DNA of 64,000 nucleotides from Haliotis cracherodii. Its lineage: Eukaryota. Shown one piece after another: positions 3,376 through 58,797 of this stretch. The stretch lies in contig NW_027266264.1 in the NCBI RefSeq assembly GCF_022045235.1, positions 56,668,001-56,732,000 of the forward strand, in the 5' to 3' direction. Each line of letters opens with the position of its first letter. Positions within the stretch are counted from its first letter, which is position 1. A program made the position numbers and the translations under genes. Below the pieces are notes generated by a model. That model was not told where the DNA came from. It saw only the letters and a program-made list of their open reading frames with translations, and searched no databases.

Positions 3376-6300
3376 CTGGAGTTCCCACACAAAGACTATG
3401 ATCAATACAGGATCGTTTCCAGCTTCAGCTCAGAAGAATTTTATTATCTGTGTCTTTAACACTCTAATTCTCTGCATTTTGCTGTGCAGGGTTATGTTCC
3501 TTGGATGTGTCAGGATTCTTGGTTTTATTGGTTTGAATCCTGATTATAGCCTTCGGATTGTCGGCACCATATACGAGGGGCGTTCTTTAAGTTTTGCAAC
3601 TTCAATATAAGACCAAGTCTGTACAGTTAAATCACCCACCCTAGCTCCCAGTGACTATTTCCTGTTCCAGCAAATGAAATCAGCCCTACGTGGAAGACGC
3701 TTCCAGGATGACGAGGACATAAATGCTGCCACAGAGGCGTGGTTAGAGGGCCAATATGTGCATTTCTATAAAAGTGGTAATAAAAGCTTGAAGGTCAAAT
3801 GGAAGAGTGTATTGAGGTGAATGGAGATTATATTGAAAAATAAAAATGCAAAAGATATTCTGCAACTTGGTCTTGTATTGAAGTTGCAAAACTTATTGAA
3901 AGCCCTGTGTAAATACTTGTGGGATTTTGACCCCTTTTCATTTGCAGTAGACATCTTTAAATGAATAATGTTGAACTTGATAACAAATTTCATAAAAAGG
4001 TATTTAGTAATAAACAGCATATTTTGAGACATATTGTTTTGACCAGCACCATACTATGCATGGTAGTATCCCCCCTTGGTAAATCAAACCCAATTTATGC
4101 AATAGTGAGTGAGTGAGTATGGTTTTACGCCGCTTTTAGCAATATTCCTGCAATATCACGGCGGGGGACACCAGAAATGGGCGTCACACATTGTACCCAT
4201 GTCGGGAATCGAACACGGGTCTTCGGCGTGACGAACGAACACTTTACACACTAGGCTACCAGACATCCCCCAATTTTTGCAATAACCCTCCCAGAATCTC
4301 ACATAATATATTTTACATATTTCACATATAGTCCTAATGAGCTGATAAGGAAAGTTTTGGACAAGTTCAAATAAGGTGAAATGTAACATGATAATAATGA
4401 CAGTTTTACCTGAGCTTGTGTCTGGTGTACAGAAATCATGTTCACTTTAGTCTGCAGATCATTGAGTTGTGCATCGCTGGCCGTGAGTTCACCAGACTTA
4501 GTCTTGTAGTTCTCTCTTATACCAACTTCTTTAGCCAGCAGTCCTGCTACAGTAGCAGCCTAAATGAAAACAATAATAGTAATAATACTACAATAACATT
4601 TAGAATTAATTCACTAAATGGGTTGGGCATAATAAAGGTCTGCATATAAATAACAAGAGTCAGCAGAAGATGACAAATTTCTATCTAATCTGTCTGTCCG
4701 TATACAAGAGTAGTTATCAAGCTATAAAAACAATAGCATTGAATTGTGATTTCGAACTTTGTATTTCTATTTTAGGTACACATCACTATGAACAGAGTCA
4801 CAATCAAACTTGTTGCCATGGACACAGAAACAAATTATATTTTTTTAAATTACTAAAAGAATATGTCCTTAGTAGCAAAAAGCACCACTTCATCCCCTGG
4901 TCAATGGATGGGGGTCATTCAATCCATATCGTATATCTAGGGTAATGTATACTTTTCTTCCCTAGTACCATACTTTTAACAGGTCAAATCCAAAAGAATT
5001 GTTCTTTATTTTAATGTTCATTTCTACCAAATCTAGGGTTATGGGTTATTCACAAAAAAATTGTTGTATAATTAAATGTTCATATCCACCAAATCTAGTG
5101 CTTTGGGCCATGCACAAAAATATAGTTCTATAATTTAATGTTTATTTCTACCAATCTAGGGGTTTGAAAACCAAGAAGTTGTATGAGGACTGACCTGTCC
5201 TTCTGCCTTAGTCCTCATGTCCTGCAGGCTCTGGTCACCGGTGATCTGCAGATAGGTTGTGTTGGCCCGGTCCAACTGGGGGCTGAAGTTGAGGCTGAGT
5301 GACCCTCCTCCAGTGCCCTGACTGCGGTACTGAAACATCACATCGTCATCAGTCTCCTGTACATGCTGCATCACTCACTGACTCGTTCACTCACTCCAGT
5401 GACCTGACTGCAGTACTGAAACATCACATCGTCATCAGTCTCCTGTACATGCTGCATCACTCACTCACTCACTCACTCACTCCAGTGACCTGACTGCGGT
5501 ACTGAAACATCACATCATCATCAGTCTCCTGTACATGCTGCATCACTCAACTGACTCGTTCACTCCAGTGCCCTGACTGCGGTACTGAAACATCACACCA
5601 TCATCAGTCTCCTGTACATGCTGCATCACTCACTCACTCACTCCAGTGCCCTGACTGCAGTACTGAAACATCATATCGTCATCAGTCTCCTGTACATGCT
5701 GCATCACTCACTCACTCACTCCAGTGCCCTGACTGCGGTACTGAAACATCACATCGTCATCAGTCTCCTGTACATGCTGCATTACTCACTCACTCACTCA
5801 CACACTCACTCACTCCAGTGCCCTGACTGTGACATCCTCACATTCACATATGGAAGATCCAGTAAAGCTCCAGAAGGCAGGGTTTACAGCTTCAAGTCAA
5901 GGGATTCATTGTTTCATGATGTCAGTTTGTTACAACAAATAATATCTACTCAGCTTTGCTAGGAATAGTTGAAGATTGTACCGTTTGTGCTGTGACATTG
6001 TACTGCTGGAACTTGTACTCGTAGTTGTTTCCTTTCTGTGTCTCAGTTTGAGCAAGGTCAAGGGTGCTAAAGCTTTCAGTAAGGAGGCCATTTAGCCTCG
6101 CATCTTCAGAAATGGATATGTTTTTCTGAAGACCCGCTGCCATATTCAAGCTGGCAACCTATAGAGAAAACAAAAAGGATTTGGCAATTGTCGTAAAGAT
6201 TGCCACCATAACACAATGAAAGTCTCAAAATAATATTCTTCATTCCCATGCACAACCACTCCTATCTTTACTTTGTTTTCTGAAAAATGTAATAAGTACA

Positions 6301-9300
6301 ATATGGCCACCCACAGCACACTAAAAACTCAAATAAAGTCATAACTACACCTATTCTTGGGACCTTTCCCTGAGATCGTAGACAACAGGCCATCATGCCT
6401 AGTTTAGCCTATATATTACCCCACTGCAGGGCTGCATGTAGGAGTTAGAAAAAGGACAGCACATTACTGTTACATGGTTGCTCCACCTGACAAATTAGAG
6501 TTACCTCCCTTACAGAAATGTGTATTACATCGCCATTTTGTGATAACAAGAACTCCTTGCAAACCCTCTCTGCATCCACCAGTGCATTGTTGTTTGAAAA
6601 AGAAAAGAGGCAACATGTATGACCCATCAGCAAAGAATTTAAACCATTGTTCCAGTTACTGATGGCCTCACATCAGACTGTTATGATTGATGCACCATTG
6701 GGATGGAATATATCTTCAACTGACAAATCAGTAATCACTAAAATGCGCATCTGCAAATGTCCGAACATTTTTCAAACTCATCTTTCAACCCTCACATGTA
6801 ATATCATTGACTACATGCATCCTGCAACAGTTTTGTAATACCTTCTGTTTGAGTTGCTCCACCTGCTGTTTGGTGCTGTTTTCCTGAAGAGTAATGTTTG
6901 CTGTCATCTCACTGACCGTGCTGTTGTTGGTGTCGGTCAGACCGAGGTCTGTCATGGCTTGCTCTAGCTGTGTGTGAAGAGACTGCAACAGAATCCACTT
7001 CATGTACAGCATCACAGAAATGCTAACCACTGTGAAGACATTCTCCCTTTGCATTTTTACAACTGGACTGATATTCATATAAATCTTTGCAAAATTATTA
7101 ATAATTTTGTCACAATGTCTATAAACAGCTTTTTGTGAGAACAAGAAGACCTATTATACACAGGCTTTTCCAGATTAATCCTGTAACTGAAGGACTAACC
7201 GTCTGCTGAATCCCTTTTGATATTGCCTCATGTACGAGTTAGTGAGTGTAATTTTACCACGCAATATTCCAGCAGTATCATGGCAGGAGACATCCGAAAT
7301 AGTTTCACACAATGTACAAATGTGGGAATCAAACTCATGCCTTTGGCATGGTGAGTGAATGCTTTAACCACTAGGCCATCCCACTGCTCCATGTTGGTTA
7401 GACTATTCCTTGAAACAACATGAAGCTGGTCTGTCCTTACCTGAAGTTCTTTGTCTTGTGCCTGGATTCCAACAATATGCTGTGACACTGTATATGTTTC
7501 CTGCCATTTTTCTTCCAATTTCCTAGTATCATTACCCAAGGATGTTGAACACACATCACACCCTGCAGGAGGTATAAACAAACAAAAGAAAATTACAAAC
7601 AACTATTTAAAATTCCATATTTGTTAAGATTTGTTTGTTTGTTGTTTACTGCTGCACTAAGCAATATTCCAGCTATATGACAGCGGTCCGTAAATCGAGT
7701 CTGGACCAGACAATCCAGTGATGGACATCATGAGCATCAATCTAAGCAATTGGGATATGATGACATGCTTTAACCAAGTCAGTGAGCCTACTGTGTTATC
7801 TCCTACTTGTGTTAATAGATTTCAATTTAGGATTGACTGTGTATTTTTTTCGGTTCATTGAGGTATGAATCGAAAAACCGATGTGCAAACTTTTGTAAGA
7901 ATCCGCATAAATAGCGGATTCTTACAAAAGTTTGCACATCAACGGAGAGTGGGATTAAAACAATGTTCATTGGACCTGTCTGTTAAGGCAAGAGGCGAAA
8001 AGACTTGCAACAGTCAGACTGTAACGAACCGGAAGAAATATGTCCGAGAGAAGGCGGCTGTTTCAAATAACATGGTCATTTACTGCGTGATTCAAACATT
8101 ACTTCCCTGATTACAGTAAAACACAGTTGGAGAAGTGCTAGTTAGAAATGAAACCCGAAGACATGAAAGTTGAACCGAGGCGAGCGGGAAAAAAACAGGC
8201 GAGCGAGCCTGCACGTTTGCTGTTTCATTCAATCTTAGCCTTCTGTTTCAAAGGATAGTTTGGACAATGAATATGCATGAAAGTCGCTAAAAGTCCTGTA
8301 CATGACGATACACGTGAGCAAAAAGGGAATTCCCTCGACCGTAATATTGGGATTCACCGACATTCCGCAGTAATAAAAGTAGTGCGCAGCGGTGGGCGTG
8401 GCTTAATTTTTTACATTCATTGGGAAATGAATGCAATAACACCTGACCAATTCAGCTAATCAGAATGCAGGAATTTCCATCAACACAACGAAAATTTAAT
8501 TATTAACATATCAATTAAATCTAAATTGTCCATTGACATCATTAATATGTTGATAGCAAAAAACGCTTTAATAAAATATATTGACATCTTGTAAATTCCA
8601 ACGGCTCCATTGTGAATGAAATCAACTAACAAAATAACAAAATGCTTATAGGGTTGAAAGAGATGTCTTTTGTATAAATATTCCTAGATTCTAAAATAAT
8701 CAAATTTTCTAAACATTGAAAATCCCCATCCATTTTAGCAACTGGACATCCTCATCCAGCGTATTTATCTTCATTCTACTTTGGTCCTGGGCCCAATCAC
8801 CACCATACATTTGGTTTTACTGCAGTTCAACTGTTGCAATGCTAAAAATAAATATCCAGTCAAATTACACTATTCTTTCATGATTCGAATAAAGCTGCAG
8901 TATCAATAGTATATTCAAAATGCCATAAGGAAAGTATTGTAGCATAAGGCCTTCCCTGTTCCTGTCCAAATAGTCAGCAGAACATAACTTTATAGCTGAA
9001 AGTCAATTTGTAACAGCCTTCTATTTCAATTATAAAATATCATGGCTTCGTTTAGAAGAGACAGTGATTTTGAATGGAGATCTATGCCGAACGCTCTTTC
9101 AGAAGAAGCATTGTGCTTGGTTGTCAGGCTGGTGACATAATTCTTCTGAGATGAAGCTCTTGTGGCCAATAGCTCCAGCGTATATATATCATTACAGCAT
9201 GGAAACAATGGCAAAAGTGAGTGTGTCTCACTAATACCCCCGACCCACCTAGTGTGTCAGTAGTTTCAAATCAAATAGCTAGGATAGGGTTAAGGTTTGA

Positions 9301-12300
9301 AAAATTTATTCAAAAAATGGAAAATTAATAAAAAAAAATATTTTTTTTTGACTGCACCCCCATAAAGACAGACGTGCATTCCTGACAATACCTTTGCATC
9401 CAGTGTCGCTGAAGTCTATAAATAGAGCCTGGCAGCTGTCACATGTCCGACCGGTCACTCCTGGCTTGCATGGGCACTGACCAGTCGCTTTGTCACATAC
9501 CGAAGCATTCCCACCGACAGCCCCAGTCAGATTGCAGTTACATGCTACAAGAAGACATAGTTGGAAGTTACACTGACTACTGTTACACTGTTAATATATC
9601 TTGTTAAAGTTTTCAAGATTTTCATAAAATTAACCTCAAAGCCCTGTTTTTGTTTGTTTTCTCCTGGTGTCATACACTTACCAGTACATTCTTGATCTGG
9701 TAGACCAAAGTAGCCATCAACACATGTATCACACCGTTGCCTGGGGGCAAGAACATTGGCCTTGCATACACACAGCCCCTGGTCTGTACACTGGGTGGTC
9801 ACACTGCCTTTCTCCACACAGTTGCAGGCCTGACAACCTGTAAGATAAAACAAAACTCATCCTGGGCTTATAAACCTCCAGTGACGTCATCTTATTGTTC
9901 TCCAGTCTGGTTAAATCTCCAATCTCATTAAAATCGGATCATAGTTCTCGCTACCGCCAAACAAAGATCTGAGGACATCCCATTAGGGGTCACGTCAGAA
10001 CGACCTTTCATCTGACCAATCAGAGCTTCGCTTACCAGATCAAGAAAGTGACATTCGGAATGTGAATTCTGATAATGCAACCTCGAAAACGTTAACACAG
10101 GATATTCTGGACAATAGTTACGGGTTTAACAACTGAATCCATACACTGTAGACCATCTATTAGCCATACCAGAATGTTCTTTTGTTCAGGTTTCAAATTT
10201 GTAATCAAGAATTTGTCAAAATGTTTCGAAGGGTTGTCGCCAATTTGACATTAGTGCCGTAAAGCACGAGAAAGCTGCTTTCTGATTGGCTAATGTCGAC
10301 TTCTTGTCAGTCCTTCTATCGTACTGTCAAAGTTTGCGCAAGGTCGGTCTGATGTGACCTGTAATGGAATGTCCTCAGATCTTTGTTCAGCGGTAGCGAG
10401 AACAAAAATCTTATTTTAATGAGATTAGTTAAATCTCATAAACAGGGACATTATTATTTCCCAGGAATTTTATTAATACAATTTCTGTTTAGATTGTGAC
10501 GTATGAATGCTTGAACACAATGTAATGAAATGTAAAATGATAAATTTCTATCTCTACATTCATGAGGCTCGAACACTCAACCTCCGTATCTGTAGCCCAG
10601 TGAGTGTACCACAAGGCTACAGAGGTGCTGATAATTTAAATCACACTGCTTTTAAAATTTTTTTTTTCAAGTACCATAAGAAGCCAGCAACAGATATTTA
10701 ATACCCATTTCAAAAGGTTCATGGAAAGTATGCTTGAAACCTAAAATGTTGATAAATGTTTTAGGTTTCAGTTTTCAGTTTATATAAGGATTGACTGTGA
10801 ATACTTTTCGGTTCATTGACAAGCCCATAAAGTCAGCAGCCAAACAACAGAGAGTAGGATAAAAGCAAAGTTCATAGGACCTGTCAATCAAGGCAAAAGG
10901 CGTCCGGGGAAAAGGCGTCTGTTTCAAATAACATGGTCAGTTACCGCCAGGTTCAAACATTAGTTCCCTGAGAACGGGAAGACAAAGTTGGAAAAATGCG
11001 GGTGAGAATGAAACCCAAAGACATGAATTTCGCTAAATGTCCTGTGCATGACAAACTATTCATTGGTTACACATGAGCAGAAAGGGAATTCCGTTGACTG
11101 GAATTGGGATTCTCCAACATTCCATGATAATAAAAGTAGTCCGCTTCAGTGGGCGTGGCTTAAACATTTACATTAATTGAGAAATGTATGCAATATAACC
11201 TGTGACCAATTCAGCCAATCAAAATGCAGGAATTACAATGAACACAACGAAAATTCAATCATAAGTTAGATAAAACACTTCCCCTCAGTTTTTTATGATA
11301 TTTAAACCCGTACCGGCTGGATAGAATTATTAATTATCATAAAAATCCTCGTCTTGTGCTTTATCCTACACTAGTCTCTGAACATATCAAATGTTCTTTG
11401 CTTGCATTAAGAAAGGGACACATTTTTATCTGGACATACTGGAGTTCTGTAACTCATGAAATTGATGCTGGCATGAAATGAAAAATGTGAGTGTCTTTAG
11501 CTTGCATTGATAAAGTGGTGCCTTTTAATCTTGACATATTAGGTGTCCTGTACATCATGAAACAAATGTGAAATATGTGTGTCCCTTGCTCACATTAAAT
11601 AAGTGAAACATTTTTATCTGGACACACTGAATTTTTTGTCATCTTATGTTCGCGGTGCACATGCATGACAAACATTACAAAGCTCACAATAAACAATGTA
11701 ATTGAGTGCGAGATTTAGAGAGTGCTTCTCACAAAGTTCCACATTTAAAGGTGTCCTTATTCATTTTCAGTGATCTATTCATATAATATTCACCCTTATT
11801 TTGTCTTTTACACCAAATTGAATCTATTTCTGCACATAAATAACATTATGACTATTCTCTGGCATTAACATTTGACATTTACACAAGTTCATCAAGCTGT
11901 TATGACCGTCGCCAGCCATGTATGCTGGCATCTTTGTTCTTGGTAACCTTGTCAAATAATCTTAAACACCAAGGTAGTGAAAATGTCAAGTACATCAAAA
12001 GCAGTCATTATGGATACATAACACTGCTCACTTACATTCAAAGGATCGTGCTAACTCATATAACAACAATCGAAAGCTGTACAATCCTCGTTGGTGACTC
12101 AATCTATCTCATCTGAACATTCATTATTTGGAATCTCATGCTCTTGATTTCATTGAAGTAAGATCACACGTCAAGCAGTTAAAGTTAAGTTTGAGAAGAT
12201 CGCAAATAATATTAAATCTACCAGCTATCACCCCATACTGTAAGAGGGAATACAAAGTCAACAGCCTTGGTGTTATCATTTGCTGATCATATTTTTTAAA

Positions 12301-15300
12301 AGTTCAAAGGCAAATACATAAAGTTAACTTCTGATCTCAGGCCCTTTGACACATTTCTGCCAAACTGTGATGATCTTGTTATTAATTCTAGAATTTCCAA
12401 AAGAAAACGATAACTTAATTTCACAACAATCTGACATTCTCTGCACCCAAAAAGACCTAAACAGAAAACGTTAATGCCAGAAAATAATCAGCCTTGATTA
12501 TCTGCCAAACAGGCAAAAAAGTATACTGAATAAAAGTGACGACACCAGGTGTTTGTGAAAAGGGCAAGCATGTCCTTCTCTACCGGTAGCACCCGCCATT
12601 CACACAATTTGCCTTAAAAGGTAAAGTGTTTGTTAAATTTTATGTCACCTGTTGATAATGCTGCACAGCAATACTAAAATTTTCCATGTATATTTCTAAA
12701 TATTTACATGATAAGGAACATTATTCTTTTTAAGGATGGTTGGCATTCAACATTCCTTGTTGGTTTAACCAACCTACATGGAATGCTACATGAAAAACCT
12801 GTTAAAGTTGCAAGCTACTAATTTGGATCTGTCAGCTTCCTTATTGGAACAGGATTGTCCGACTTATGACAGCAGATGACAGATCAGCTAGGTGGTATAG
12901 CCTCGTGGTTAACCCTTAGGCTGCATGTCGCGACAAGACTTGTGCAGCCCTATCGAGCATGGCAGAGCATGTCGTGACCAAGTTTGGTTGAGATATCTCT
13001 CATGGTTTTTGAGTTCACGAAAACGTGATGGATGGACAGCACCCATTCCTATATCCCCCTTCCACTTCGTGACGGGGGATAATATACCTGCCACCTCCAT
13101 CAACACTCACCTGGCGGGCTAGTGCTATAGCCCCAGTAGTTGTCCAGACATGTGTTGCAGCTCCTTCCCCCAACCCCAGGATAACAGGGACAACTGCCAT
13201 TGTACCGGTCACACACAGCGTCGGTCGATCCTGTTGAGTTGCACTCACATACTGGAATATTAAATATTAAATATTCATTGTTGTACAAGGAATGTCAGCA
13301 CCACCTTTGTGTGTATGATACAGTCAAATCTTATACTCACAATCACAAGCATTCGTCACCGAGTTCCGATAGAAGCCAGTTATGCAGAGTTCGCAGTGGT
13401 TTCCTGTTGTGTTGGAGTCACAGCCATTACATATTCCTGTGACTGTATCACAGATATCAGTCCTGTTGTTGCAGTCACACGCTGTGCAGCTTCCGGTTCC
13501 AGGGATTGATGGCTGACCGTAGTGGAACGGTTTACACCTGACAAAGGGAACAGCATTTTGTGACTCACCTCATGTCAATTAAGTCAAGGAGTAGAAACTA
13601 TGAAAACTGAATATCAAATGCTGACTGGACATTTAGATGTGAAACTGAATTGTTTTGTAGGTCCCATCAAGTTCAGCTGCTATAGTCTAGAGAGGAATTT
13701 AACTTTTACAACCAGTCCTAGAGAATATATTGGCTGTTAGAATAATCACCTCCAGAGTTAGAGAGGAAGCTGCAAATATTAAAAGATAGTTACTATTGTT
13801 AATAATTTGAAGAATACTACCTCTATCAGATTTGTGCCAGAAATCCTGTTTTTCAGCTGTCATCACACTATAAAATCTTAATATTTTCAACAGAAGTCCT
13901 CTTTACTGTGAACTATCCATGACCAGTTGAGACACTAATATTAGCAGGTGAACAGGTTTAGGAAGGGAGGTGCTATTAGTATCTTGACTGGTTATGGATG
14001 GTTGACAGTTAAGAGGACTTCTTTTGAAACTCTCAAGATAAAGTAGTGTTACAACAGTGTAAAAAGAGGATTTCTGGCACTGATGCAAAAGAAGATTAGT
14101 ATTCTAAAGAACTACAGCAAAGACATTGTATATACGTCTTTGACTACAGATAATACTACAATGTACTGACTTGTCACAATGGTCGCCTGTGTATTCCGGG
14201 TTACAGAAACACTTAATGACACTGGCTTCCTTGTAGCAAGTTGTGTTTACAACTCGTGGGTCATAACACGGACACTGGCTGCAGTCGTTTGGATTCCCAA
14301 TGGTAGCGTTACCATAGTAACCAGGTTTACACATCTCACAATTTGCACCTGAAACAGTCAAACATATTTTCTATTAAACTTCGAAAATGATGGATTACTT
14401 TCTTGTGAATGAGTCCTGTAAGTTTGTAAGTTGTCTAACATTTGTTCCCTCGATTTGGACATGTAACAGTGATTAAATATCCATTTTACATAATGGAATT
14501 TGAACCACTGACTTTCTGAATCGAGGTCAGACGCCTTGTCCACATGGCCAAAGAGGTTAATCCCATTAGCAAACTGACATGGTACAGATGTCAGCTGTGG
14601 GATGACTCCCTGCTACAGATGGATAATCTCTAATCTTTGTAGCTCTTTAGTGCTTTAAGTCAGTATTTCATCTTCAGATGAAACAAATTGAGTTCATGTG
14701 ATGCAAGTTCCTGCGGCTACCTGTGGTTTGATGCTGACAGTCGAGACAGTTCCCGGTGTTGGGGTCACAGGTAGAGGCATGGTTATTACAGGTGCAAGGT
14801 TCACACACACCCAGATACTCATGGCCGGTCACGTTGGCACGCTTGAAGCCTGTTGCACAACTCTGAAGAGGAAACATTACCACTCACGCCATGTTCGACA
14901 AGGAAATTATAGACCTATGTCCATCATAACTGTACACTTTAACATTGACCTATAATGGCTATATTACGCTAAGAGTGTTTTGTGGAACAAGATCCAGGGT
15001 GTCGTTTTACAAAACAACCTCAGCGCTATGATCGTCATAAGTCTATGTTTAGGTATGGTAGTTACGATCACTTTAGCGCTAAGATCACTTTGTACAACAG
15101 CACCTTGGATGTCCAATGTCACTTGAGAGTATAATGCACGAATAACTAGGGCTGCAACGAAACACCTAGATCACGATACGATACATATCTCGGTATTTAC
15201 ATCACGATTCGATACGTATCTCAATACGCGACGATACACATAATGACAAGAGAAGACAAAAGATAAATGAATTAGTTTATTAAAATGAAAAATAAAAATG

Positions 15301-18300
15301 AAAGTGAATGAATTTTCATGAGTCATAAAATATGTACTGTAATGAGTATTTGAACTTAATCATCTGACATTTCCATGTAATGGCAAGCAACCAGAAAAAG
15401 TAACAGTCCTACATATTTGTGAGTTGTGACTAGATAGTAATGTCTATAATTGGGTGATGGCTGCGTATGTGAGTTGTCATGTTTGTCGTGCTGCCCGTCT
15501 ATTACAACATTGCATGACACATGCGACAGCACGTTTGATCTTTGCACACGTGTTTGATTCCATCTTCAAATGTTACTAGGAACCCGAAATGTTCCCAAAC
15601 TACTGATTTGTGAATCCCCGGTGGTCTCTCCAGCAAAGGACAAGCGTCTGCTTTTTCCGACATGTTTGAGTTAGAGACCGCTCAGCCAATCAGAAAGCTT
15701 GAACTGCTGCTGATATACAAAGCTAGCATACCCGCTGTATTTTTGAAGACGTACATGTGTGAAGAGAAAATTATATTTTCCCTACTTTTTATGACTCGAA
15801 TGTTCGAATTTGAAATTAATTTAAAAACCATTTAAAATGTATCTGTGATAGAAGTTTATTAAAAAAAAATGTATCATGGAAAATCGAGATACAGCACCTT
15901 ACAAACTGTGCACCATATCGTATAGAGTGAATCGCGATGCATCGGTGTCCCGGGATATCGTTTCAGCCCTATGAATAACCCAGTGACGTGAGAAACAACA
16001 CATCTCATGACAGGTCATTCTATTTCAATGATCTGTCAACATTTAATATATGAGCCCTTTAGGCTTGAAAAAATAATAGTCTTGGTTCTCAGGCACCACC
16101 CACTTCATCAGAAAGTCTACCGCATGTTTCGTTTTATTTCCATTTGAATTCCTTTTTAAAACCCTAACACCGCCCATTGCATTATAGTTTAACAAAATAT
16201 TGTGTGTCTGCTGAAGTATATAAGTACAACAACCACTGGGCCATCAAAAAAAATAAAAACATTCTCCTTTGTCCTTATTTATTCCCTTTCTGCTTAGCAG
16301 TCATTATCATGCACCACAATGTTACAAACCTCGCACGACAGTCCTGTATATCCTGTTCCACATTCACATTTCTCGACACTACTTGCTACAAGGCCCACAG
16401 CACCATCTAAACTGTACTCAAGACGTGACAAGCTGCAATGATAGAAGGTCTATAGTTAAGAAGGGGCACGTACAACACGAGACGACAGCTAGGTCAAAGT
16501 GCAGACAAGAATATTCAGCTAGTCAAATCCTGCACAACCTCCTTGTTATCATGATAAAGTTTCTGGTTTGCAAAAGAAGAAAAATAATACTATGAAGTGT
16601 ATAATGTAATATCAGTGAAAAGCTAACTAAACTAATAGTGAGGTTTCAAGTTAAAAAATGAAAAATGGTTTTATGAAGGTGAAAAAAATGTATCTTTGTC
16701 ATTTTATTAATATTTGGCCGTTACTTTAAGTAAAACTTTATTATGGGCTAAACATACCCAGGATGCAGCATCTTAAGCAAGAGAAGTGGAATGAGAGCAC
16801 TGTATCAACTTGAACCAATTCGTTTTGATTTATTTTTCACAATTTTTATAGAAAAGAAGTGCCAATTCTTTTATTCAGATTTGGAATAGACAAGTTATGA
16901 AGTTTTGAAACTATCCACATCCTGGCATATTAACAATCCCTATAGTCATCATCACTTGAAATAGAATCACAAAATATTGCAATTATTAATTAATGAACAT
17001 TGAAGCATTAATTCCAATACTTATAAAATAAAAAAAAAGCCATTACTGCAATTTTGGTAGGGATAAACATCACTGGGCTTTGATCACATGGTTACAATCT
17101 GGGTACGGATCGGTAGTCAGGTGACTTCGAGTGATTATATATAGCATTGCGTGCATTTTGAACTTGGTTAATAGCAGTTTAAATACTACATCTGCACAAT
17201 TTTTACTATCAGTTCGTGCTGGTAAGGTACGTACACTGCACATGCAGTTAAATATAGCTGCTTGAAGTCAACTGACTGCCAATCCTAGCCCGAATTGTAA
17301 CATGATCAGAAATGATAGTCATCGATAGTAAAATGGGTATTTCTTGAGAAGGGCACTTTGCAATTTTGGTCATTACTCTATGTAATATTTCTTATCGTCA
17401 GATAAGGTTTTCACCTAATTATTACCAGCACACGTGCAGCTGTCTTTGTTAATTACCGTATTCGACGTAATAAGCGCCCAGGGTGCCCTTAAATTTAGAA
17501 ATAGGGAGCTCTTATTAGAATGTTATTTTGGTGAAAAAAACAGAGTTAAAAGATAAATCTCGTGGTTTATGCTGACAGCCTGAAATGATTATGTATGACA
17601 GATATATTTTTCCAGAATTAAATTCCCCATAATTAAAGGTGCATAAAACACATGAGTGTGTATTATACGCAAATAAAAAAGTCTTGTGTACATTGATCAA
17701 TTGGAAGGGGTGCTAATTGGGATTGTTCACTAGCCAATATCTTAGCAAATGTCGCCATGGGGCACTTATTAGAGCGGGGCGCTTATTACGCCGAATACGG
17801 TATATATTTTCGCGATTCTATTTCAAGGACTATAGTCGTCAGTGCCGAATCACATTGCTTTTGGCGAATGTGGAAGATATCCTCAATATGGTTTTGCACA
17901 TACATGAGTACTGACCTATTGGACTAAATTAATGAATATGCCCAATTTAAGATATCACAAAAAATATTTTCAAATGCTATTACAAGCAAATAATAAATGT
18001 AAATGTAAATGGTTCTCAAAATTCCTTCTTCAATTTGGCTTTGAATAGCTGTGGAAATCACAGTTTGTATACCATAAAGAATGTTTTGCTGGAGAATATC
18101 TGTTCATTTGAGCTAAACTGACCTCTTTCAACTTTTGTATTACATTATCACAATTTTGTTGTTCCGGTAGTTTGTATCATCTGTGTCTGTGAAAGCAGCA
18201 TATATCATAGAACTTACTAAGACACATGATCCGTGTCTGTGAAAGCAGCATATATCATAGAACTTACTAAGACACATGATCTGTGTCTGTGAAAGCAGCA

Positions 18301-21300
18301 TATATCATAGAACTTACTAAGACACATGATCCGTGTCTGTGAAAGCAGCATATATCATAGAACTTACTAAGACACATGATCCGTGTCTGTGAAAGCAGCA
18401 TATATCATAGAACTTACTAAGACACATGATCTGTGTCTGTGAAAGCAGCATATATCATAGAACTTACTAAGACACATGATCCGTGTCTGTGAAAGCAGCA
18501 TATATCATAGAACTTACTAAGACACATGATCCGTGTCTGTGAAAGCAGCATATATCATAGAACTTACTAAGACACATGATCCGTGTCTGTGAAAGCAGCA
18601 TATATCATAGAACTTACTAAGACACATGATCCGTGTCTGTGAAAGCAGCATATATCATAGAACTTACTAAGACACATGATCTGTGTCTGTGAAAGCAGCA
18701 TATATCATAGAACTTACTAAGACACATGATCCGTGTCTGTGAAAGCAGCATATATCATAGAACTTACTAAGACACATGATCCGTGTCTGTGAAAGCAGCA
18801 TATATCATAGAACTTACTAAGACACATGATCCGTGTCTGTGAAAGCAGCATATATCATAGAACTTACTAAGACACATGATCCGTGTCTGTGAAAGCAGCA
18901 TATATCATAGAACTTACTAAGACACATGATCCGTGTCTGTGAAAGCAGCATATATCATAGAACTTACTAAGACACATGATCTGTGTCTGTGAAAGCAGCA
19001 TATATCATAGAACTTACTAAGACACATGATCCGTGTCTGTGAAAGCAGCATATATCATAGAACTTACTAAGACACATGATCCGTGTCTGTGAAAGCAGCA
19101 TATATCATAGAACTTACTAAGACACATGATCCGTGTCTGTGAAAGCAGCATATATCATAGAACTTACTAAGACACATGATCCGTGTCTGTGAAAGCAGCA
19201 TATATCATAGAACTTACTAAGACACATGATCCGTGTCTGTGAAAGCAGCATATATCATAGAACTTACTAAGACACATGATCCGTGTCTGTGAAAGCAGCA
19301 TATATCATAGAACTTACTAAGACACATGATCCGTGTCTGTGAAAGCAGCATATATCATAGAACTTACTAAGACACATGATCCGTGTCTGTGAAAGCAGCA
19401 TATATCATAGAACTTACTAAGACACATGATCCGTGTCTGTGAAAGCAGCATATATCATAGAACTTACTAAGACACATGATCCGTGTCTGTGAAAGCAGCA
19501 TATATCATAGAACTTACTAAGACACATGATCCGTGTCTGTGAAAGCAGCATATATCATAGAACTTACTAAGACACATGATCCGTGTCTGTGAAAGCAGCA
19601 TATATCATAGAACTTACTAAGACACATGATCCGTGTCTGTGAAAGCAGCATATATCATAGAACTTACTAAGACACATGATCCGTGTCTGTGAAAGCAGCA
19701 TATATCATAGAACTTACTAAGACACATGATCCGTGTCTGTGAAAGCAGCATATATCATAGAACTTACTAAGACACATGATCTGTGTCTGTGAAAGCAGCA
19801 TATATCATAGAACTTACTAAGACACATGATCCGTGTCTGTGAAAGCAGCATATATCATAGAACTTACTAAGACACATGATCCGTGTCTGTGAAAGCAGCA
19901 TATATCATAGAACTTACTAAGACACATGATCTGTGTCTGTGAAAGCAGCATATATCATAGAACTTACTAAGACACATGATCCGTGTCTGTGAAAGCAGCA
20001 TATATCATAGAACTTACTAAGACACATGATCCGTGTCTGTGAAAGCAGCATATATCATAGAACTTACTAAGACACATGATCCGTGTCTGTGAAAGCAGCA
20101 TATATCATAGAACTTACTAAGACACATGATCTGTGTCTGTGAAAACAGAATATAGCATAGAACTTACTAAGACACATGATCCGTGTCTGTGAAAACAGAA
20201 TATAGCATAGAACTTACTAAGACACATGATCTGTGTCTGTGAAAACAGAATATAGCATAGAACTTACAAAGACACATGATCTGTGTCTGTGAAAGCAGCA
20301 GGAACCAAAATGACTTCAACGTTTGTAAGAGCCAGCAAAAATTGTCCCCGTGTAACGGCAGAACCATTTTCCCACTTCCATTCAGCCTCTATCAAGCCTA
20401 TGTCGATTTTGGCTGTAACATTCACCGCCAGAGCATTAATGTCATGAACAAGTCGCCTCTTGTCTCGTCCAATCAAAATTGCTGTTGCTGGGGTTCCCAC
20501 TGCTACAACAGGCTCGACCTTGACCTCAACCTTGATGGTGGTCCCGTAGACGGGCAGCAGTGACCCTGTGAGCTGTGGAACTCTCCAATACACATTGCCT
20601 GCTGCACTTATGACTGTCCTGACAGACACGTGGTTCGTGGCTGGATCGGTGAAAGAGGTCACCAACTGGGATGCGTTGGTAACACCATCTTTATCTGCCA
20701 CTGATACTGTCGGTGTCAGCTGTCCTTGAGATGACTCAACAAGTGTGGCAGTTTTCTGAAATAGGAAATCCAGGATTTCGAGCACTTCAAGATTTAATTT
20801 TGACATTTAACAGAAACTTCTATACTGAAGGAACCCACCTAGCTGTAGCTGTGCAGGAAAAGAAGGGGTACATATTGTGATCACAAATTATAAACATACA
20901 AAGCTTGACGAATTCATGGTAGTCATGCTATTTGTTGAAAATATATCATCAATGTAAATGAGTACCGTATTCGACGTAATAAGCGTCCCGCTCTAATAAG
21001 CGCCCATGGCGATATTTACTAATATATTGGCTAGTGAACAATCCCAAGTAGCACCCCTTCCGATTGATCAATGTACACAAGATTTATTTATTCGTGTATA
21101 ATACGCAATCGTGTGTTATATGCACCCTTATTATGGGCAATAAAACAGTATATAAACAGTTCAGGACGTCAGCATAAACCACCAAATTGATCTTTCCACT
21201 CTGTTTTTTCCCACCAAAATAATATTCTAATAAGAGCCCCATATTTCTAATTTTGAGAGTGCCCTGGGTGTTTATTACGTCGAATACGGTATGTCATTCG

Positions 21301-24300
21301 TCCCAATGGAGACATGTCTAGTCTGTTTCTGAAAGAGAGCTGCACAACCCTTAAACTCAATTTGATCAGCATAGGAGAATCTTCAGTACTGTTGGATTCA
21401 ACAACAAGACATACATCTTCTGCCTATGACACATCTGACAGCAGAATGTTATGAACAATATTGTGATGATGCTAAGGGTTCCTTTTTAGAAATATTATGA
21501 TGCATTATTCAAAATCACATGATCCTGCATGAACTATTCTACGACTATTAAAATGGAGCCGTGTGTACATACCAACTCTTGTCTGCTCGTGGAGCTGGAA
21601 CACTGGGACGTGATGCCTGTGCATACACAGTCAAGACAGCCTTTAGTATTGTTGCCATGGAGATAGAAGGATCCTGCTTTACACTGGTTGCACAGCAACC
21701 CCTCAGCATTGGCCTGAAGCATAAAACATCATCAAGTCAGGTCAGAGGAGACTGTGTCCAGTCAACACATCAACATCATCAAGTCAGGTCCTACATTCAC
21801 TGTGTCCAGTCAACACATCAACATCATCAAGTCAGGTCCTACATTCACTGTGTCCAGTCAACACATCAACATCATCAAGTCAGGTCCTACATTCACTGTG
21901 TCCAGTCAACACATCAACATCATCAAGTCAGGTGAGAGGACACTGTGTCCAGTCAACACATTCACATCATCAAGTCAGGTGAGAGGACACTGTGTCCAGT
22001 CAACACATTCACATCATCAAGTCAGGTGAGAGGACACTTTGTCCAGTCAACACATTCACATAATCAAGTCAGGTCCTACATTCACTGTGTCCAGTAAACA
22101 CATTCACATCATCAAGTCAGGTCAGAGGACACTGTGTCCAGTCAACACATCAACATCATCAAGTCAGGTCCTACATTCACTGTGTCCTGTCAACACATCA
22201 ACATCATCAAGTCAGGTGAGAGGACACTGTGTCCAGTCAACACATTCACATCATCAAGTCAGGTCCTACATTCACTGTGTCCTGTCAACACATTCACATC
22301 ATCAAGTCAGGTGAGAGGACACTGTGTCCAGTCAACACAATCATATCATCAAGTCAGGTCCTACATTCACTGTGTCCAGTCAGCACATCAACATCATCAA
22401 GCCAGGTCCTACATTCACTGTGTCCAGTCAACACATTCACATCATCAAGTCAGGTCCTACATTCACTGTGTCCAGTCAACACATTCACATCATCAAGCCA
22501 GGTCCTACATTCACTGTGTCCAGTCAACACATTCACATCATCAAGTCAGGTCCTACATTCACTGTGTCCAGTCAACACATCAACATCATCAAGTCAGGTC
22601 CTACATTCACTGTGTCCAGTCAACACATCAACATCATCAAGCCAGGTGAGAGGACACTGTGTCCAGTCAACACATCAACATCATCAAGTCAGGTGAGAGG
22701 ACACTGTGTCCAGTCAACACATTCACATCATCAAGTCAGGTCAGAGGACACTGTGTCCAGTCAACACATCAACATCATCAAGTCAGGTCCTACATTCACT
22801 GTGTCCAGTCAACACATTCACATCATCAAGTCAGGTGAGAGGACACTGTGCCCAGTCAACACATTCACATCATCAAGCCAGGTCCTACATTCACTGTGTC
22901 CAGTCAAACATTCACATCATCAAGTCAGGTGAGAGGACACTGTGTCCAGTCAACACATCAACATCATCAAGTCAGGTCCTACATTCACTGTGTCCAGTCA
23001 ACACATTCACATCATCAAGTCAGGTCAGAGGACACTGTGTCCAGTCAACACATCAACATCATCAAGTCAGGTCCTACATTCACTGTGTCCAGTCAACACA
23101 TTCACATCATCAAGTCAGGTCCTACATCCACTGTGTCCAGTCAACACATCAACATCATCAAGTCAGGTGAGAGGACACTGTGTCCAGTCAACACATTCAC
23201 ATCATCAAGTCAGGTGAGAGGACACTGTGTCCAGTCAACACATCAACATCATCAAGTCAGGTCCTACATTCACTGTGTCCAGTCAACACATCAACATCAT
23301 CAAGTCAGGACCTACATTCACCGTGTCACGTCAACACATTCACGTCTCCAAGTCAGGTCCTACATTCATTGTGTCCAGTAAGGCAGGCATTGGAGGAACC
23401 AAGTGGTGAAAGTGTTTGCCTTCCAACATGGGTCAATGTGTGAAACCCATTTCTGATGGCCTTGCTATGATTATTACTCAAATACCCCTGTGCCTGTCAC
23501 TGACTGAAAGTGTTTAATAATCCAGGCAGTGTTGCCCATGACAAGAACTGCTCACCTTGCAGGAACATTGACCTGTTGCCTTGTCACACACAGTGGAGTT
23601 GGAGCCGGTGCTGTCACAATTGCAGGGACTGCATCCCAGGCTGCTGAAGCCGGTGAACGTGTCCGCACACTCATGACACTTGTCTCCCTGTACACCTGTC
23701 TTACAGGAACACACCCCAGTCGTGCTGTTACACCATGTCCGCTGGGATCCAGTGGTGTTGCAGTTGCATTCCTGTTGTCGTACAACACAGATTTATCAGT
23801 ACTTGATATACTTACAAAAATACCAACATCAATTCAGTGTTCACTCTTGCCAAACTAGGCTGGAATTATGGAGTTATATTTTGGCTGGACTAACAAGTGC
23901 ATAATCCAATCAAATCGCATAACAAAAAGCACATGCGTAAACTGCTGTGCAGATTTCAGTTGATCGTAGGACTTGCAAAGCATGTGTACCGCCAGCTTGA
24001 CGTCAGCATATATTTTTCCAGATTTTGTTTTGTTTTTAATCAAGGTGCTCATGTGATTTGATGCACTTTATATTACAATATAAATTTTGATTATCGATTA
24101 GCTTGTTTTGAATGGGCGACACCATTTTGTTTGAAGCAAATGCAAGTGATATGAGAGGTAGAAAATCATTGGTCAATAGGAAGGACATAGAAGGAACATA
24201 ACTTATGATAGCCACTGGTGGCACGACGATTGAGCCCAGATTTTCCAGCCTAGTTCGGCTCTTGTCTCCGGAAGATGTATCAGTACTTGATGTACTTATA

Positions 24301-27300
24301 AAATTATCAACATCAATTCAGACTTATCAGTGCTTGATATACTTGACATAAGTGGGTGGATGTGACAGGAAGTGGGTGGATGTGGCAGGAAGTGGGTGAA
24401 TGTGACAGGAAGTGGGTGGATGTGACAGGAAGTGGGTGGATGTGACAGGAAGTGGGTGAATGTGACAGGAAGTGGTCGAATGTGACAGGAAGTGGGTGAA
24501 TGTGACAGGAAGTGGGTGAATGTGGCAGGAAGTGGGTGAATGTGGCAGGAAGTGGGTGAATGTGACAGGAAGTGGGTGAATGTGACAGGAAGTGGGTGAA
24601 TGTGACAGGAAGTGGGTGAATGTGGCAGAATGTGGGTGAATGTGGCAGGATGTGGGTGAATGTGGCAGGAAGTGGGTGAATGTGACAGGAAGTGGGTGAA
24701 TGTGACAGGAATTGGGTGGATGTAACAGGAAGTGGGTGAATGTGGCAGGAAGTGGGTGAATGTGACAGGAAGTGGGTGAATGTGACAGGAATTGGGTGGA
24801 TGAAACAGGAAGTGGGTGAATGTGGCAGGAAGTGGGTGAATGTGACAGGAAGTGGGTGAATGTGACAGGAAGTGGGTGAATGTGGCAGGATGTGGGTGAA
24901 TGTGGCAGGAAGTGGGTGAATGTGACAGGAAGTGGGTGAATGTGACAGGAAGTGGGTGAACGTGGCAGGAAATGGGTGAATGTGACAGGAAGTGGGTGAA
25001 TGTGACAGGAAGTGGGTGCATGTGACAGGTTGTGGGTGAATGTGGCAGGAAGTCGGTGAATGTGGCAGGAAGTCGGTGAATGTGACAGGAAGTGGTGAAT
25101 GTGACAGGAAGTGGGTGAATGTGACAGGAAGTGGGTGAATGTGACAGGAAGTGGATGAATGTGACAGGAAGTGGGTGAATGTGACAGGAAGTGGGTGAAT
25201 GTGACGTACAGGATGTGGGTGAATGTGGCAGGAAGTGGGTGAATGTGGCAGGAAGTGGGTGAATGTGACAAGAAGTGGGTGAATGTGACAGGAAGTTGGT
25301 GCATGTGACAGGATGTGGGTGAATGTGGCAGGAAGTGGGTGAATGTGGCAGGAAGTGGGTGAATGTGACAGGAAGTGGTGAATGTGACAGGAAGTGGGTG
25401 AATGTGACAGGAAGTGGGTGAATGTGACAGGAAGTGGATGAATGTGACAGGAAGTGGGTGAATGTGACAGGAAGTGGGTGAATGTGACAGGATGTGGGTG
25501 AATGTGACAGGAAGTGGGTGGATGTGGCAGGAAGTGAGTGGATGTGACAGGAAGTGGGTGAATGTGACAGGAAGTGGGTGGATGTGGCAGGAAGTGGGTG
25601 AATGTGACAGGAAGTGGGTGGATGTGGCAGGAAGTCGGTGGATGTGACAGGAAGTGGGTGAATGTGACAGGAAGTGGGTGGATGTGGCAGGAAGTGGGTG
25701 AATGTGACAGGGAGTGGGTGAATGTGACAGGAAGTGGGTGAATGTAAGTGGGTGAATGTGACAGGAAGTGGGTGAATGTGACAGGAAGTGGGTGAATGTG
25801 ACAAGAAGTGGGTGAATGTGACAGGAAGTGGGTGAATGTGACAGGGAGTGGGTGAATGTGACAGGAAGTGGGTGAATGTAAGTGGGTGAATGTGACAGGA
25901 AGTGGGTGAATGTGACAGGAAGAGGGTGAATGTGACAGGAAGGGGGTGAATGTGACAGGAAGTGGGTGAATGTGACAGGAAGGGGGTGAATGTGACAGGA
26001 AGTGGGTGGATGTGACAGGAAGTGGGTGCATGTGACAGGAAGTGGGTGAATGTGACAAGAAGTGGATGAATGTGACAGGAAGTTGGTGCATGTGACAGGA
26101 AGTGGGTGAATGTGACAGGAAGTGGGTGAATGTGACAGGAAGTGGGTGGATGTGACAGGAAGTGGGTGAATGTGACAGGAAGTGGGTGAATGTGACAGGA
26201 AGTGGGTGGATGTGACCGGAAGTAGGTGGATGTGACAGGACAGTGACAGAAAGTGAATATATGTGACAGGAAGTTGTCAGGAATTCAGAATGATAGCAGG
26301 TGACAAAAGGTGACACGTAGGTGAGTGATGTGACCTTGCATCCAGTTGTTGCATTCCAGCCCCACATGTTGAAGTTACACAAGTCACAACGGAGGCCGAT
26401 AGTGTTGGGAGGACAGTCACACTGGCCCGTCACTGCATCACACACGACATTGCTGGATGCACAGTTGCAGCCTGGATAAGGAGAAAGTTGCATCAGTGAA
26501 CATCAGCTGAAATCACTAACTTTTCATGATTATTATAAAGCTGATCAGTGCAATGGGTTGCTGAAGAAAAATGCCAGCATTACATTGGAGGAACTCACCA
26601 TTGCTGACAAAAAAATGTTGGTTTTCTTTCCTTGTTGTTACATGTCAGCAATATTTCAGCTGTATCATACTCTAGTCTGGGCCTAACGAACCAGTGGTCA
26701 AAACAATTTACAAGACTGGTCCAGTTTATGCACCTCTTATGACAAGCATGAGAATGGTGGGACCTAATCTAACATAGGTCATCACGGTGACAAGCAATAG
26801 GGGACCTATTCTACCCCTAATGGATAAATGTGTCCATTCTATATAACGACACTGGTTTCTGTCACAAGTTTATTTGTTCAACATGATATTACTTACTTAC
26901 TATTGGAGATTTAACATGTACTTTCCGACATTATGAGTATTTCGCACATGGGCCCGCCAGGCCATTTAGTGAGATTGCCAAGGAGGGTGTGTCCGAAAGG
27001 TGAGGCAACCTGGGGGGAGCTTAGGTTGCTTATTTTCAATTTTGAGAAATTTGGAAATTGGAAAGTTGGTGGTGTAAGGTGGAGGGACGCATGATATTCC
27101 TACTACTGACCTTTATATCAATGAAATATGTTTAAAACAAACACACTCTCAGTGAATTCCCCTTACTTGAACAGCCAGCATCAGTGAGCTGGTAGAAGCC
27201 GGCCTGGCACTTGTCACACGCCCTTCCTGTCACTCCACCCTTACACTGGCACTGCCCACCAAAGGGATCACAGGATGCAGCGGACCTGCCTAGCTGGCTG

Positions 27301-42300: not shown

Positions 42301-45300
42301 ATCACACTGTACCAGGCACAGAGACACCTCATCAGACTTCCATTTTGGAAATGGCAAATGAAAACCTCATTCTACTGTTCATTACTTTACTGACGGAGAT
42401 ACAATAAATAACTGATGGTGACGACTACCGATATAAGGCCACAACAAGTCAGTCTTTGGATTTTCATCCAAATCTTTGCCAAATGTCAGATGGTAGACAC
42501 TAATTTTTAAAAACATTTTTTTAAACAATCTCATCAAGACATGTACATTAAGTGATGGATGAAGCAAGAATGTTTTGTAGGACTATGTATATGGTGTAGT
42601 TCACCAAGTTAAAAGGAGGCAGCACACATCGCAAGGCGCCATTGATACTGCCCATTTCAATGATTAAACATCAGATCCTTGTTGTGCAACCTTTACAAAA
42701 AAACTTCATCAATAAAAATAAGAACAATTTCAATTTAGTTGGTTTGTTCCACATTCTACCAACCCGACCGGTTGAGTTATGATGAAACATAGAATGTCAT
42801 CCATTGTATCATGACGTCACAGCATTCTGCATGATGTTATCGCCTTGCAGACTAATTTTATGTCTATCTCACAACTCTGAAAGTTTACTTTGAGAGAGAG
42901 TCCAAAAGAAAATTACTGATAACTTTTGTATTTTTCAATGTCTTATATCGCGAGGAAGTGTTATGCCCATTGTAGTGGCAAGTTGTTCCTAACAAGCCAC
43001 ACAAGTGCCACGGTTTGATGAATTGAGAGGGGAGCAAGACTTGCTTAATAGTTCTGCATCCTCGTGGTATATGTCGGCCGGCTACCCCTCTGCAGCTGAC
43101 ATGGACTTCAATGTTCTTAGCAGAGACCATATAATCTATCATATGATCTCTGCTCTTAGGTAGAGCCTCAACCATTAAAAGTCCATCGCACCATACTTAA
43201 ACACCTGCTTTCCAGTTTGTGATATTGAGAATTCAACATCCAAACATGTAATACTCAATAACACCTGCAAATCTGAAAACATTGCTCATACTATTAACCA
43301 CTAGTTTGCCTTGCCCACATTCAATTATTTATAGGCTGCTTTGCTGTGAATGGCATATTGATGACTGCATACCTTCACAGGCTACACCGTACTGCCAGGC
43401 TTTCTGGTTGTAGAAGGGGAGACAGCGCTCACAGAACTGGCCCACTGTGTTGCCGCCACACACACATTCGTAGATCTGGGTCTGTGCACTGAGTACACAG
43501 TCTGTGGCATGGCCGTTACACACACACTCCGCCATCACCTCAAGCTCTGATATGGCGAAGTGTTGCTGAAAGATAGACATGACATCTCAATTACTTTCAG
43601 ATCCGAAAGGACAGAAGAGTCGCTAAAATATAGACATGGTTTCTTGATTACTTTCAGCTCCGAAAGGACAAAGAGTCGCTGAAATATAGACATGGCATCT
43701 CGATTACTTTCAGCTCCGAAAGGACAAAGAGTCGCTGAAATACAGATATAATGTCTCACAGAAAAACAATCTGATGGTCAGTTTGACTTACAGTTTTTTT
43801 GTACGACAAACAATGACCATCAGTCATTTATTTCGTATATGACATTATAAAATGTACAAGCTTTAAATAATAATGACTCCCTGAATACAATCCGATCTCG
43901 GCAATGTCAGACAGGTCCATTTTTTAATGAACGGTGGGGGGGGGGATAAAGTCTTGTATTTCCAGAATATTCTCACAATTTTCCTGTCAAACATCTGTAC
44001 CATTTCTCCATATACTGATTGTCATATCTCTTCCACTTTTGGCTGCAATCGTTTGGCCATTGCGTTTATCTGTGTTACCCAGCTACATCTATGGGGAATA
44101 ACTCATAAGATACTCCCCTCTCAAAAATAACTTGTCGTCTAACTTACGTCAACAAGTTGTGAGAGCGGAGAGCATGTTCCAATCTCCAGATATGATGTAA
44201 TTTTATTCATTTTTTTGTCATTTGTCATTTATATATAACGCATTGTTCTACCCCTATCAGGAAATCTGGCAATTCCATTGGCAGGGATAAGAATGGATAA
44301 TTTCCTTTTCAGCTGAAACCTCTTTGCAATGGAGCGTGGTCCATAATTAGTGGGTGTTTAGGGGTAAGCCATGAGATTTTAATAAATTTGTGGTCACTAA
44401 AACATGCGGAAATTTGCAGATCCGCGGAAGATTCTCACCCCTGCATTGGTTTGTCCATACAACGTGAAGAAACAATTCATTTTGATGTAGACCCCCAAAT
44501 CATGTCACTGACACTGACCTCAAATATTGATTCAATACATGATCAGATGATGAATACTGACTTGTCTGCTAGTAAACAAGATGGCTTCTGATACAACATT
44601 TTACGGTTCACAGCAAAGTTACTGTAACGAAACAGAGGACAGTTTAAAGACTCTCTGAATTTGTATTGCATTTTGTTATAACAAAACAAAATGTTTACTC
44701 TTGATCAGGTTAACATGTGAAAACAAAGACCCATGGGCCCAACCCCTACAGGGCTCTGACCGGCCCTTGGCCTGCTGCCTCGTTCCGATCAGACAACCTC
44801 AGGCGTCGGGTCATCGGGTCCTTGTTTTTGCATGTTGACCTCATCAAGATTAATTGTTATATTCAGTCAGGTGAGCTCACAAAGAAGGTGCTGATTTCTA
44901 TTTGTCAGTGATCAGCACTTATAAGACAGCTTAGAACAGTTGAGATACTGACTTCATTCTTTCCTAGTAGCCTAGAATTGCTTTCCATTTATTTGTCTTT
45001 TACAAATCAAATGAAACAGTGTACTCAATGATGATCTGATTTTGATTTCTAAACATTCAGAGCTTTCTGTTTAAACCCATCATTTACAAGGTAGAGAGAT
45101 GCTATTCATCAGTTGGTCCAACTTAGACTAACATATCGGCTTGGTTAAAAAGTAATAGTGATTGAGTGAGTGAGTTTGGTTTAACGCCGCTTTTAACAGT
45201 ATTCCAGTTATATCACGGCGTGTCAGCTTAATGAGGGAGGAAAGCCCCAAGTGATGCAGGTCTCAGACGTTTACCACTTCGGTGAAACCCACGAGCACGG

Positions 45301-58683: not shown

Positions 58684-58797
58684 GCCGAAGACCCGGGTTC
58701 GATTCCCGAAGCCTGTTGTAGCAAGTTTTCCTCCCACATTAAACTGGCACACCATGATATAACTGTTCAAAGTGGTGTTAAAACAAAATCACTCACT
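58679..58797 (+). mobile_element. 5'-truncated SINE fragment
   Basis: gtcacgccgaagacccgggttcgattcccg ... gttaaaacaaaatcactcac. Confidence 0.75.

Follow-up and report, generated by a model that had tools for sequence, protein, structure and literature searches.

How does the splicing machinery handle a gene in which one acceptor is preceded, unit after unit, by further copies of itself? The stretch of abalone DNA that we analyzed (hereafter the window, 64 kb long) raises this question on its minus strand at 5308..5830, where the boundary between intron 29 and exon 30 of a laminin-like gene is repeated in tandem. An initial annotation had left two readings side by side: a cassette microexon array that varies a Gly-rich coiled-coil hinge, or a set of decoy splice sites that must be silenced. 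We put the probability at roughly 80% that the array arose by neutral tandem duplication of the intron 29/exon 30 boundary, and that its extra acceptors lose by exon definition and are likely silent decoys. Below we describe the gene and the array, its splicing, its origin together with that of a second, inverted copy, and the readings that compete with this one.

The host gene and the array in intron 29

The gene model was built by hand and places 31 exons on the minus strand (4410..51750); it runs from the ATG at 51750 to 4410 through 1688 open codons, with GT-AG borders in 30/30 introns. Single exons matched Laminin_N, EGF_laminin and Laminin_B, six of the nine exons tested gave a laminin match, and laminin-G-like exons, judged by eye, lie downstream of the model. 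The nearest protein came from Haliotis rubra (1408/1688 residues identical, 83%; EGF, B and G domains), followed by one from H. asinina (1370/1687, 81%). A word-index protein search with exon 19, covering proteins up to 2000 aa, gave no match. Its domains and relatives identify the host as a laminin alpha-like chain of abalone. This chain combines a weak N-terminal LN domain with one laminin B domain and G domains, its orthologues bear inconsistent database names (epi-1-like, beta-1-like, alpha-3), and it may represent a laminin alpha subtype specific to molluscs.

Exon 29 (5982..6158, minus strand, 177 nt, phase 0) ends in the donor ACG/GTACAA, and the true exon 30 (5195..5329, minus strand, 135 nt, phase 0) in the donor CAG/GTCAGT. 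Both exons were supported by the gene model and by RNA joints, exon 30 also by its donor score. The number 30 and the phase 0 assigned earlier to this exon proved correct in our model. Given its place after the last EGF repeat, exon 30 probably belongs to the coiled coil. The exon 29 donor (5982) scored lowest of the 31 host donors (−2.0), yet it was used in 4/4 of the RNA runs described below. The shortest intron of the gene measures 89 nt (n = 30) and the shortest exon 39 nt.

Tandem Repeats Finder (TRF) and the unit sequence delimit the whole array within intron 29, with a period of 78–86 nt that varies with the length of a GAGT tract; the TRF score of 725–755 for 6 copies was far beyond chance. 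On the minus strand, copies of the real acceptor (5329) stand at 5740, 5662, 5584, 5501 and 5415, so the five duplicates that the initial annotation placed upstream of the real exon do exist. Each duplicate repeats the start of exon 30. Duplicate 1 (5720..5740) reads YRSQGTG, duplicate 2 (5642..5662) YCSQGTG, duplicate 3 (5564..5584) YRSQGTG, duplicate 4 (5481..5501) YRSQVTG and duplicate 5 (5395..5415) YCSQVTG, all on the minus strand; the three variants listed earlier beside YRSQGTG were thus all recovered. A GTGAGT had been ascribed to every unit, which is accurate for four of the five; duplicate 3 continues with GTGAAC and is without a consensus donor at +21. The spacers that follow the five duplicates measure, in order, 57, 57, 62, 65 and 65 nt. 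The annotated range of ~57–65 nt was therefore right, but these lengths fall below the shortest intron of the host rather than near a minimum intron size.

Outside the GAGT tract, the units of this near array differ by 0–2 substitutions each, and cryptic AG/GT signals are present. The array is closed by a degenerate sixth unit (~5813..5840, minus strand), a remnant that appears to be a unit with an 8-nt deletion across its acceptor. This remnant carries the +5A allele, which was otherwise seen only in the far array described below.

Splicing at exon 30 and the strength of the duplicated signals

We examined splicing in assembled contigs of four runs (of 21 listed) from two studies. The four runs were taken as RNA by guess, and the GT-AG joints in their contigs show splicing. 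For splicing, evidence was drawn from these joints alone, and uncovered bins within the array were given no weight. A test on contigs reveals the main isoform, rare isoforms being lost in contigs, and the mapping covered the region except for the repeat stretches 5450–5489 and 5776–5819. Results showed that in 4/4 runs one contig crosses exons 27–31 with GT-AG joints, including the joint from 5982 to 5329. For intron 29 this was the only joint among those listed for the contigs of the four runs, from which rare variants drop out, and the insertion tables of the same contigs held no inserted letters. Runs X1–X3 matched the exons without difference, and X4 differed at 17 of 728 positions. Run X4 also yielded a 108-nt contig that matches 5675–5775 exactly (101 nt), a unit left unspliced and flanked by intron on either side. 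Because this contig spans the unit junction, the repeat junction is present in a second, slightly diverged organism.

We concluded that the last acceptor copy (5329) is the only one joined in the main mRNA, and the five extra acceptors are therefore likely silent decoys. The earlier suggestion of decoys that must be silenced fits the data in its first half, in that the decoys are unused in the main mRNA; a dedicated silencer was neither shown nor needed.

Splice sites were scored with a matrix built from the host gene alone, with 31 donors only. On this scale the duplicated acceptors scored 5.2–7.0 and the real exon 30 acceptor 6.5. The unit donor GGA/GTGAGT scored 3.7, above only 2 of the 31 real donors on this small matrix; the real donor of exon 30 reached 9.8. 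Since the donor hexamer recurs every 4 nt along the GAGT tract, equal donors stand at +25, +29 and beyond; in a comparison of pairing with the U1 motif, those at +25 and +29 were at least as good as that at +21 (7.0 vs 6.5). Of the 15 GT[GAC]AGT donors, 5 preserve an open frame, and the other 10 either break the frame or bring in a stop codon. If an upstream acceptor were used with read-through, translation would end at codon 11–15, whichever copy was chosen. Because read-through ends so early and most alternative donors shift the frame, the aberrant products of either kind would probably be degraded.

Given six acceptors that are alike in sequence, we infer that exon definition is the selector: it would pick the one acceptor that has a 135-nt exon and a strong donor downstream. 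An RNA hairpin that distinguishes the real from the decoy acceptors was considered and rejected (z = 0.25, 0.92, 1.72 and 1.33 in the four windows folded).

The geometry of the units differs for joint and for single use. Splicing adjacent units together means introns of 57–65 nt, with a branch-like A 38–46 nt from the donor. If unit 1 alone were included, the flanking introns would be 241 and 390 nt, and intron sizes are normal in this way for units 1–4. A single unit thus fits with normal introns, which makes leaky use possible. Every unit has a branch-point-like CTGAT at −20. Upstream of the unit acceptor, 15 of 37 positions are pyrimidines (longest run 4), and the sole UGC lies at −41, upstream of the branch point.

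Origin of the unit, its inverted copy and other boundary arrays

At the unit junction, exon sequence ending in ACTGGAG is joined to tract sequence ending in TGAG via a shared GAG (3 nt). The two exon GAG sites nearest the acceptor (+20 and +23, in Gly-Gly codons) give phase 0, and the other two give phase 1. We propose that a template switch from the GGA-GGA codons of the exon into the intronic (GAGT)n, via the shared GAG, made the first duplicate, and that the unit then multiplied by slippage or unequal exchange. A switch through GAG always yields GA/GTGAG, in phase 0 at either Gly codon, so the in-frame donor needs no selection.

The variants admit a similarly plain account. The unit has only two CpGs, and the changes +4C>T (Cys), +5G>A (His) and −16C>T all fall on them; +4C>T and −16C>T are common to the near array and the far array described below. 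The Cys and His variants are best read, from their positions, as products of CpG decay. The copy outside the gene shows the decay as well, which counts against an array that varies a hinge.

The orthologues bear on the direction of copying. H. rubra and H. asinina each have one YRGQG-type heptapeptide at the exon 29/30 junction, without a gap, and the length of the region stays within one residue in the alignments of H. rubra, H. asinina, Patella caerulea and protein match P0018; the more distant match P0028 gave a gapped alignment in this region. A single homologous heptapeptide in abalone orthologues indicates that the exon was the source of the repeat. The aligned proteins show the ancestral protein sequence at this junction as a single copy.

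The initial annotation was accurate for the array at 5308..5830 and missed a second array of the same unit. TRF and a unit search located this ectopic, inverted array on the plus strand at 56841..58683, with 24 acceptor copies (23 whole, the last partial). It lies ~5.1 kb upstream of the host ATG, a distance counted from the ATG and not from the transcription start, and in opposite orientation to the gene. Its units encode YRSQGTG (×11), YCSQGTG (×6) and YHSQGTG (×6), the last unit being truncated. A genome search for the unit, which skipped very common words, returned 14 matches, all inside the two arrays. Common to the far and near arrays are the changes +4C>T, −16C>T and +14G>T, as well as a tract interrupted in a similar way. 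The +5A allele of the far array is that of the near remnant, and the far array has in addition alleles of its own and a block of units that recurs.

Two remnants that we take to be SINE-like, both multi-copy in the genome, flank the far array head-to-head: one on its left (56737..56840, minus strand) and one on its right (58679..58800, plus strand). At the right junction the array stops mid-unit at a 5-nt microhomology, GTCAC, common to the last repeat unit and the right remnant. As a putative templated insertion, the locus has a candidate template 51 kb away, inverted, with GTCAC shared at the right junction. The far array appears to have been copied from a template that already comprised several units; microhomology-mediated repair would have carried the copy into a break between the two inverted SINE remnants 51 kb off, where it would then have expanded locally. 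Later exchange between the near and far arrays is possible. The far array is a natural control, in that microexon-like anatomy and the Cys variant persist there, where the laminin mRNA cannot use them. Long-range pairing of the two inverted arrays in one pre-mRNA was considered and judged unlikely, as the far array precedes the ATG by 5 kb and no acceptor stands before that codon. In the same part of the window, 54300–54750 (plus strand) holds a broken stretch resembling a transposase N-terminus, presumably of mariner type. Beyond the window, at ~71100–72250 in its numbering (L018, minus strand), two immunoglobulin-domain-like exons recognized by eye belong to a neighbouring minus-strand gene that we take to be lachesin-like.

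Tandem arrays make up 24% of the 64 kb. All 12 in-gene arrays lie within 280 nt of a splice site, and five of the 12 lie within 15 nt of a real one against 0.77 expected, a descriptive figure only, the threshold having been set post hoc. By their proximity to splice sites, arrays at 43558–43746, 29164–29422 and 21725–23379 adjoin the exon 5 acceptor, the exon 13 donor and the exon 18 acceptor, respectively. At 18179..20300 (minus strand) the end of exon 19 and its donor form, by TRF and unit count, an array of 42 copies of a 50-nt unit, with 41 out-of-frame 19-nt AG..GTAAGT pseudo-exons.

Two further donor-type arrays, recognized by sequence on the minus strand, lie downstream of the window in the direction of the host gene. 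One belongs to the same gene and sits just left of the window (L015:7453-9654). It has ~40 units of 55 nt, in 39/39 of which the length from AG to donor is 21 nt. Its units consist of a pyrimidine-rich acceptor, a 21-nt in-frame segment, GTAAGT and 34-nt spacers, and their splice signals look better than those of the intron 29 array. The other (G000:C1:56647809-56651901, from the end of L017 to L016:3901) has 49–50-nt units and 70 counted donors, with an AG-to-donor length of 12 nt in 69/69 units and of 16 nt in 47. Besides the intron 29 boundary, three more exon ends of the host gene have thus been amplified likewise. In three of the four AG..GT arrays the most frequent pseudo-exon length is divisible by 3 (21, 21 and 12 vs 19), a proportion that is not significant (binomial ~0.11). 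These 3n lengths are a weak hint of frame selection, and the sole result that leans toward a microexon nursery, a reading discussed in the next section.

Competing readings and known systems

We weighed neutral duplication against five other readings. Leaky, unregulated use would have one unit occasionally spliced in as a 21-, 25- or 29-nt microexon, seven added in-frame residues being tolerated and the rest degraded. Its acceptors are identical to the real one, CTGAT stands at −20 in every unit, single-unit introns have normal size for units 1–4, and the unit donor still scores above two real host donors. Moreover, the pseudo-sites of the human F7 gene are reported to be functional once the authentic site is lost (PMC1557585). 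However, the donor is weak and no such contig was among those listed in 4/4 runs; we regard leaky use as unlikely, and it differs from silent decoys only in degree. A regulated cassette array, lengthening the Gly-rich coiled-coil break by 7n residues, draws support from the succession of AG, 21 nt in frame and GTGAGT in four of five units and from the fact that another host exon independently shows an in-frame 21-nt architecture. Against it, the contigs of the four runs gave no RNA sign of inclusion, and adjacent units would need introns of 57–65 nt, with the branch A 38–46 nt from the donor, where the shortest host intron is 89 nt. The donors are weak and not specific to one frame, a pyrimidine tract is missing (15/37; run of 4), and the sole UGC lies at −41, unlike in SRRM3/4 microexons. 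The same architecture recurs in the far array outside the gene, orthologues have a single heptapeptide, and the region keeps its length within one residue in H. rubra, H. asinina, Patella caerulea and P0018. We therefore gave up the hinge-varying array of the initial annotation as very improbable. A broader version, in which abalone mirage repeats (defined below) serve as a microexon nursery, is speculative, and we think it decidedly doubtful: (GAGT)n ends or chance YAG would make AG..GT mini-exons, low-rate splicing would expose them, mainly the frame-preserving ones would be kept, and in at least one tissue inclusion of the 21-nt unit would be frequent enough to yield laminin chains whose Gly-rich coiled-coil break is longer and tuned by copy number.

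The two remaining readings concern the arrays themselves. The gene could have received a new acceptor and seven codons from a repeat of outside origin, either the far array or something mobile, a direction suggested by the larger copy number of the far array (24 vs 6) and its private alleles. Yet H. rubra and H. asinina have homologues of the seven codons, the far array ends within a unit at the 5-nt microhomology, and only two sites were found in the genome by a search that skips very common words; such an origin seems extremely improbable. One or both arrays might instead be assembly artefacts, as their support comes from the assembly. The units differ in a structured way, however, some alleles of the far array are not seen in the near one, and the X4 contig, from another organism, matches 101 nt across a unit junction with no difference, which leaves an artefact a negligible chance.

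Neutral duplication also agrees with what is known of related systems. Microexons controlled by SRRM3/4 (eMIC) are reported to combine a strong 5' site with a strong pyrimidine tract, and in most cases a UGC lies between the branch point and the AG (10.1101/2024.09.17.613571). With these the abalone units share, on that description, only the size range (21 nt, frame-preserving): the unit donor outscores only 2/31 real donors on the small matrix, and tract and UGC differ as given above (branch-like A at −20). SRRM3/4-type inclusion was not seen in the listed contigs of the four runs, contigs in which rare isoforms are lost; a 21-nt cassette is absent from the listed orthologous proteins, and the unit junction is unspliced in X4.

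Boundary repeats in human genes come closer. In F7, a 37-bp VNTR of intron 7 spans the exon-intron boundary, and its identical pseudo-sites are described as functional but silent (PMC1557585). That repeat is on the donor side, like the exon 19 array, and is explained there by 5'-to-3' scanning, whereas the intron 29 array is on the acceptor side. The insertion c.844_845ins68 of human CBS duplicates 52 intron and 16 exon bases, and splicing reportedly takes the downstream acceptor and removes the upstream copy (PMC7490669). Abalone resembles CBS in having a duplicated acceptor of which the downstream copy is used, but CBS is a single duplication and the abalone array comprises five extra copies. 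G-run silencers have reportedly been linked to CBS; the abalone unit, in contrast, is without a G run.

The closest match is with amphioxus. Its 'mirage' minisatellites, found in Adh3, the globins BflGb6 and BflGb9, troponin C and PGBD5, are tandem exon-intron boundary duplicates with cryptic AG/GT signals, and splicing is reported as undisturbed; the possibility that a unit turns into a genuine exon was already raised by the authors (PMC3087553, PMC3902484). We concluded that the intron 29 array is a mirage, having four of the five mirage features. The repeated unit bridges a genuine exon-intron boundary; the unit next to the exon, last in the array, is the genic copy and the one that the mRNA uses (main isoform, 4/4 runs); the units are near-identical, with cryptic AG/GT signals; and the repeat is derived from the gene, the heptapeptide being homologous in two other abalone species. 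The fifth feature is copy-number instability between haplotypes or cells, and the comparison rests on one assembly. As in abalone, the amphioxus arrays duplicate the 3' end of an intron with the 5' start of an exon, BflGb6 having 6 and 3 units in two haplotypes, and both boundary types occur; the abalone gene likewise has acceptor- and donor-type arrays. The abalone differs in being a mollusc, in that the junction enters a (GAGT)n tract that supplies donor-like hexamers, and in having a larger inverted copy outside the gene. A polymorphic intronic minisatellite is on record in abalone, described without boundary duplication (PMC6905558), and the literature searched yielded no report of a mollusc mirage.

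The intron 29 array thus adds a mollusc to a phenomenon described in amphioxus and in a small number of human genes, and shows that the splicing machinery can choose one of six identical acceptors. With at least four boundary arrays of different frame in one gene, and a copy outside it as a natural control, the locus offers a direct way to ask whether repeats of this kind give rise to new microexons and whether these come under frame selection; if inclusion were demonstrated, it would document a route of microexon birth by tandem duplication. Set beside the amphioxus mirages, CBS and F7, the abalone laminin array is a convenient test case rather than a new system.
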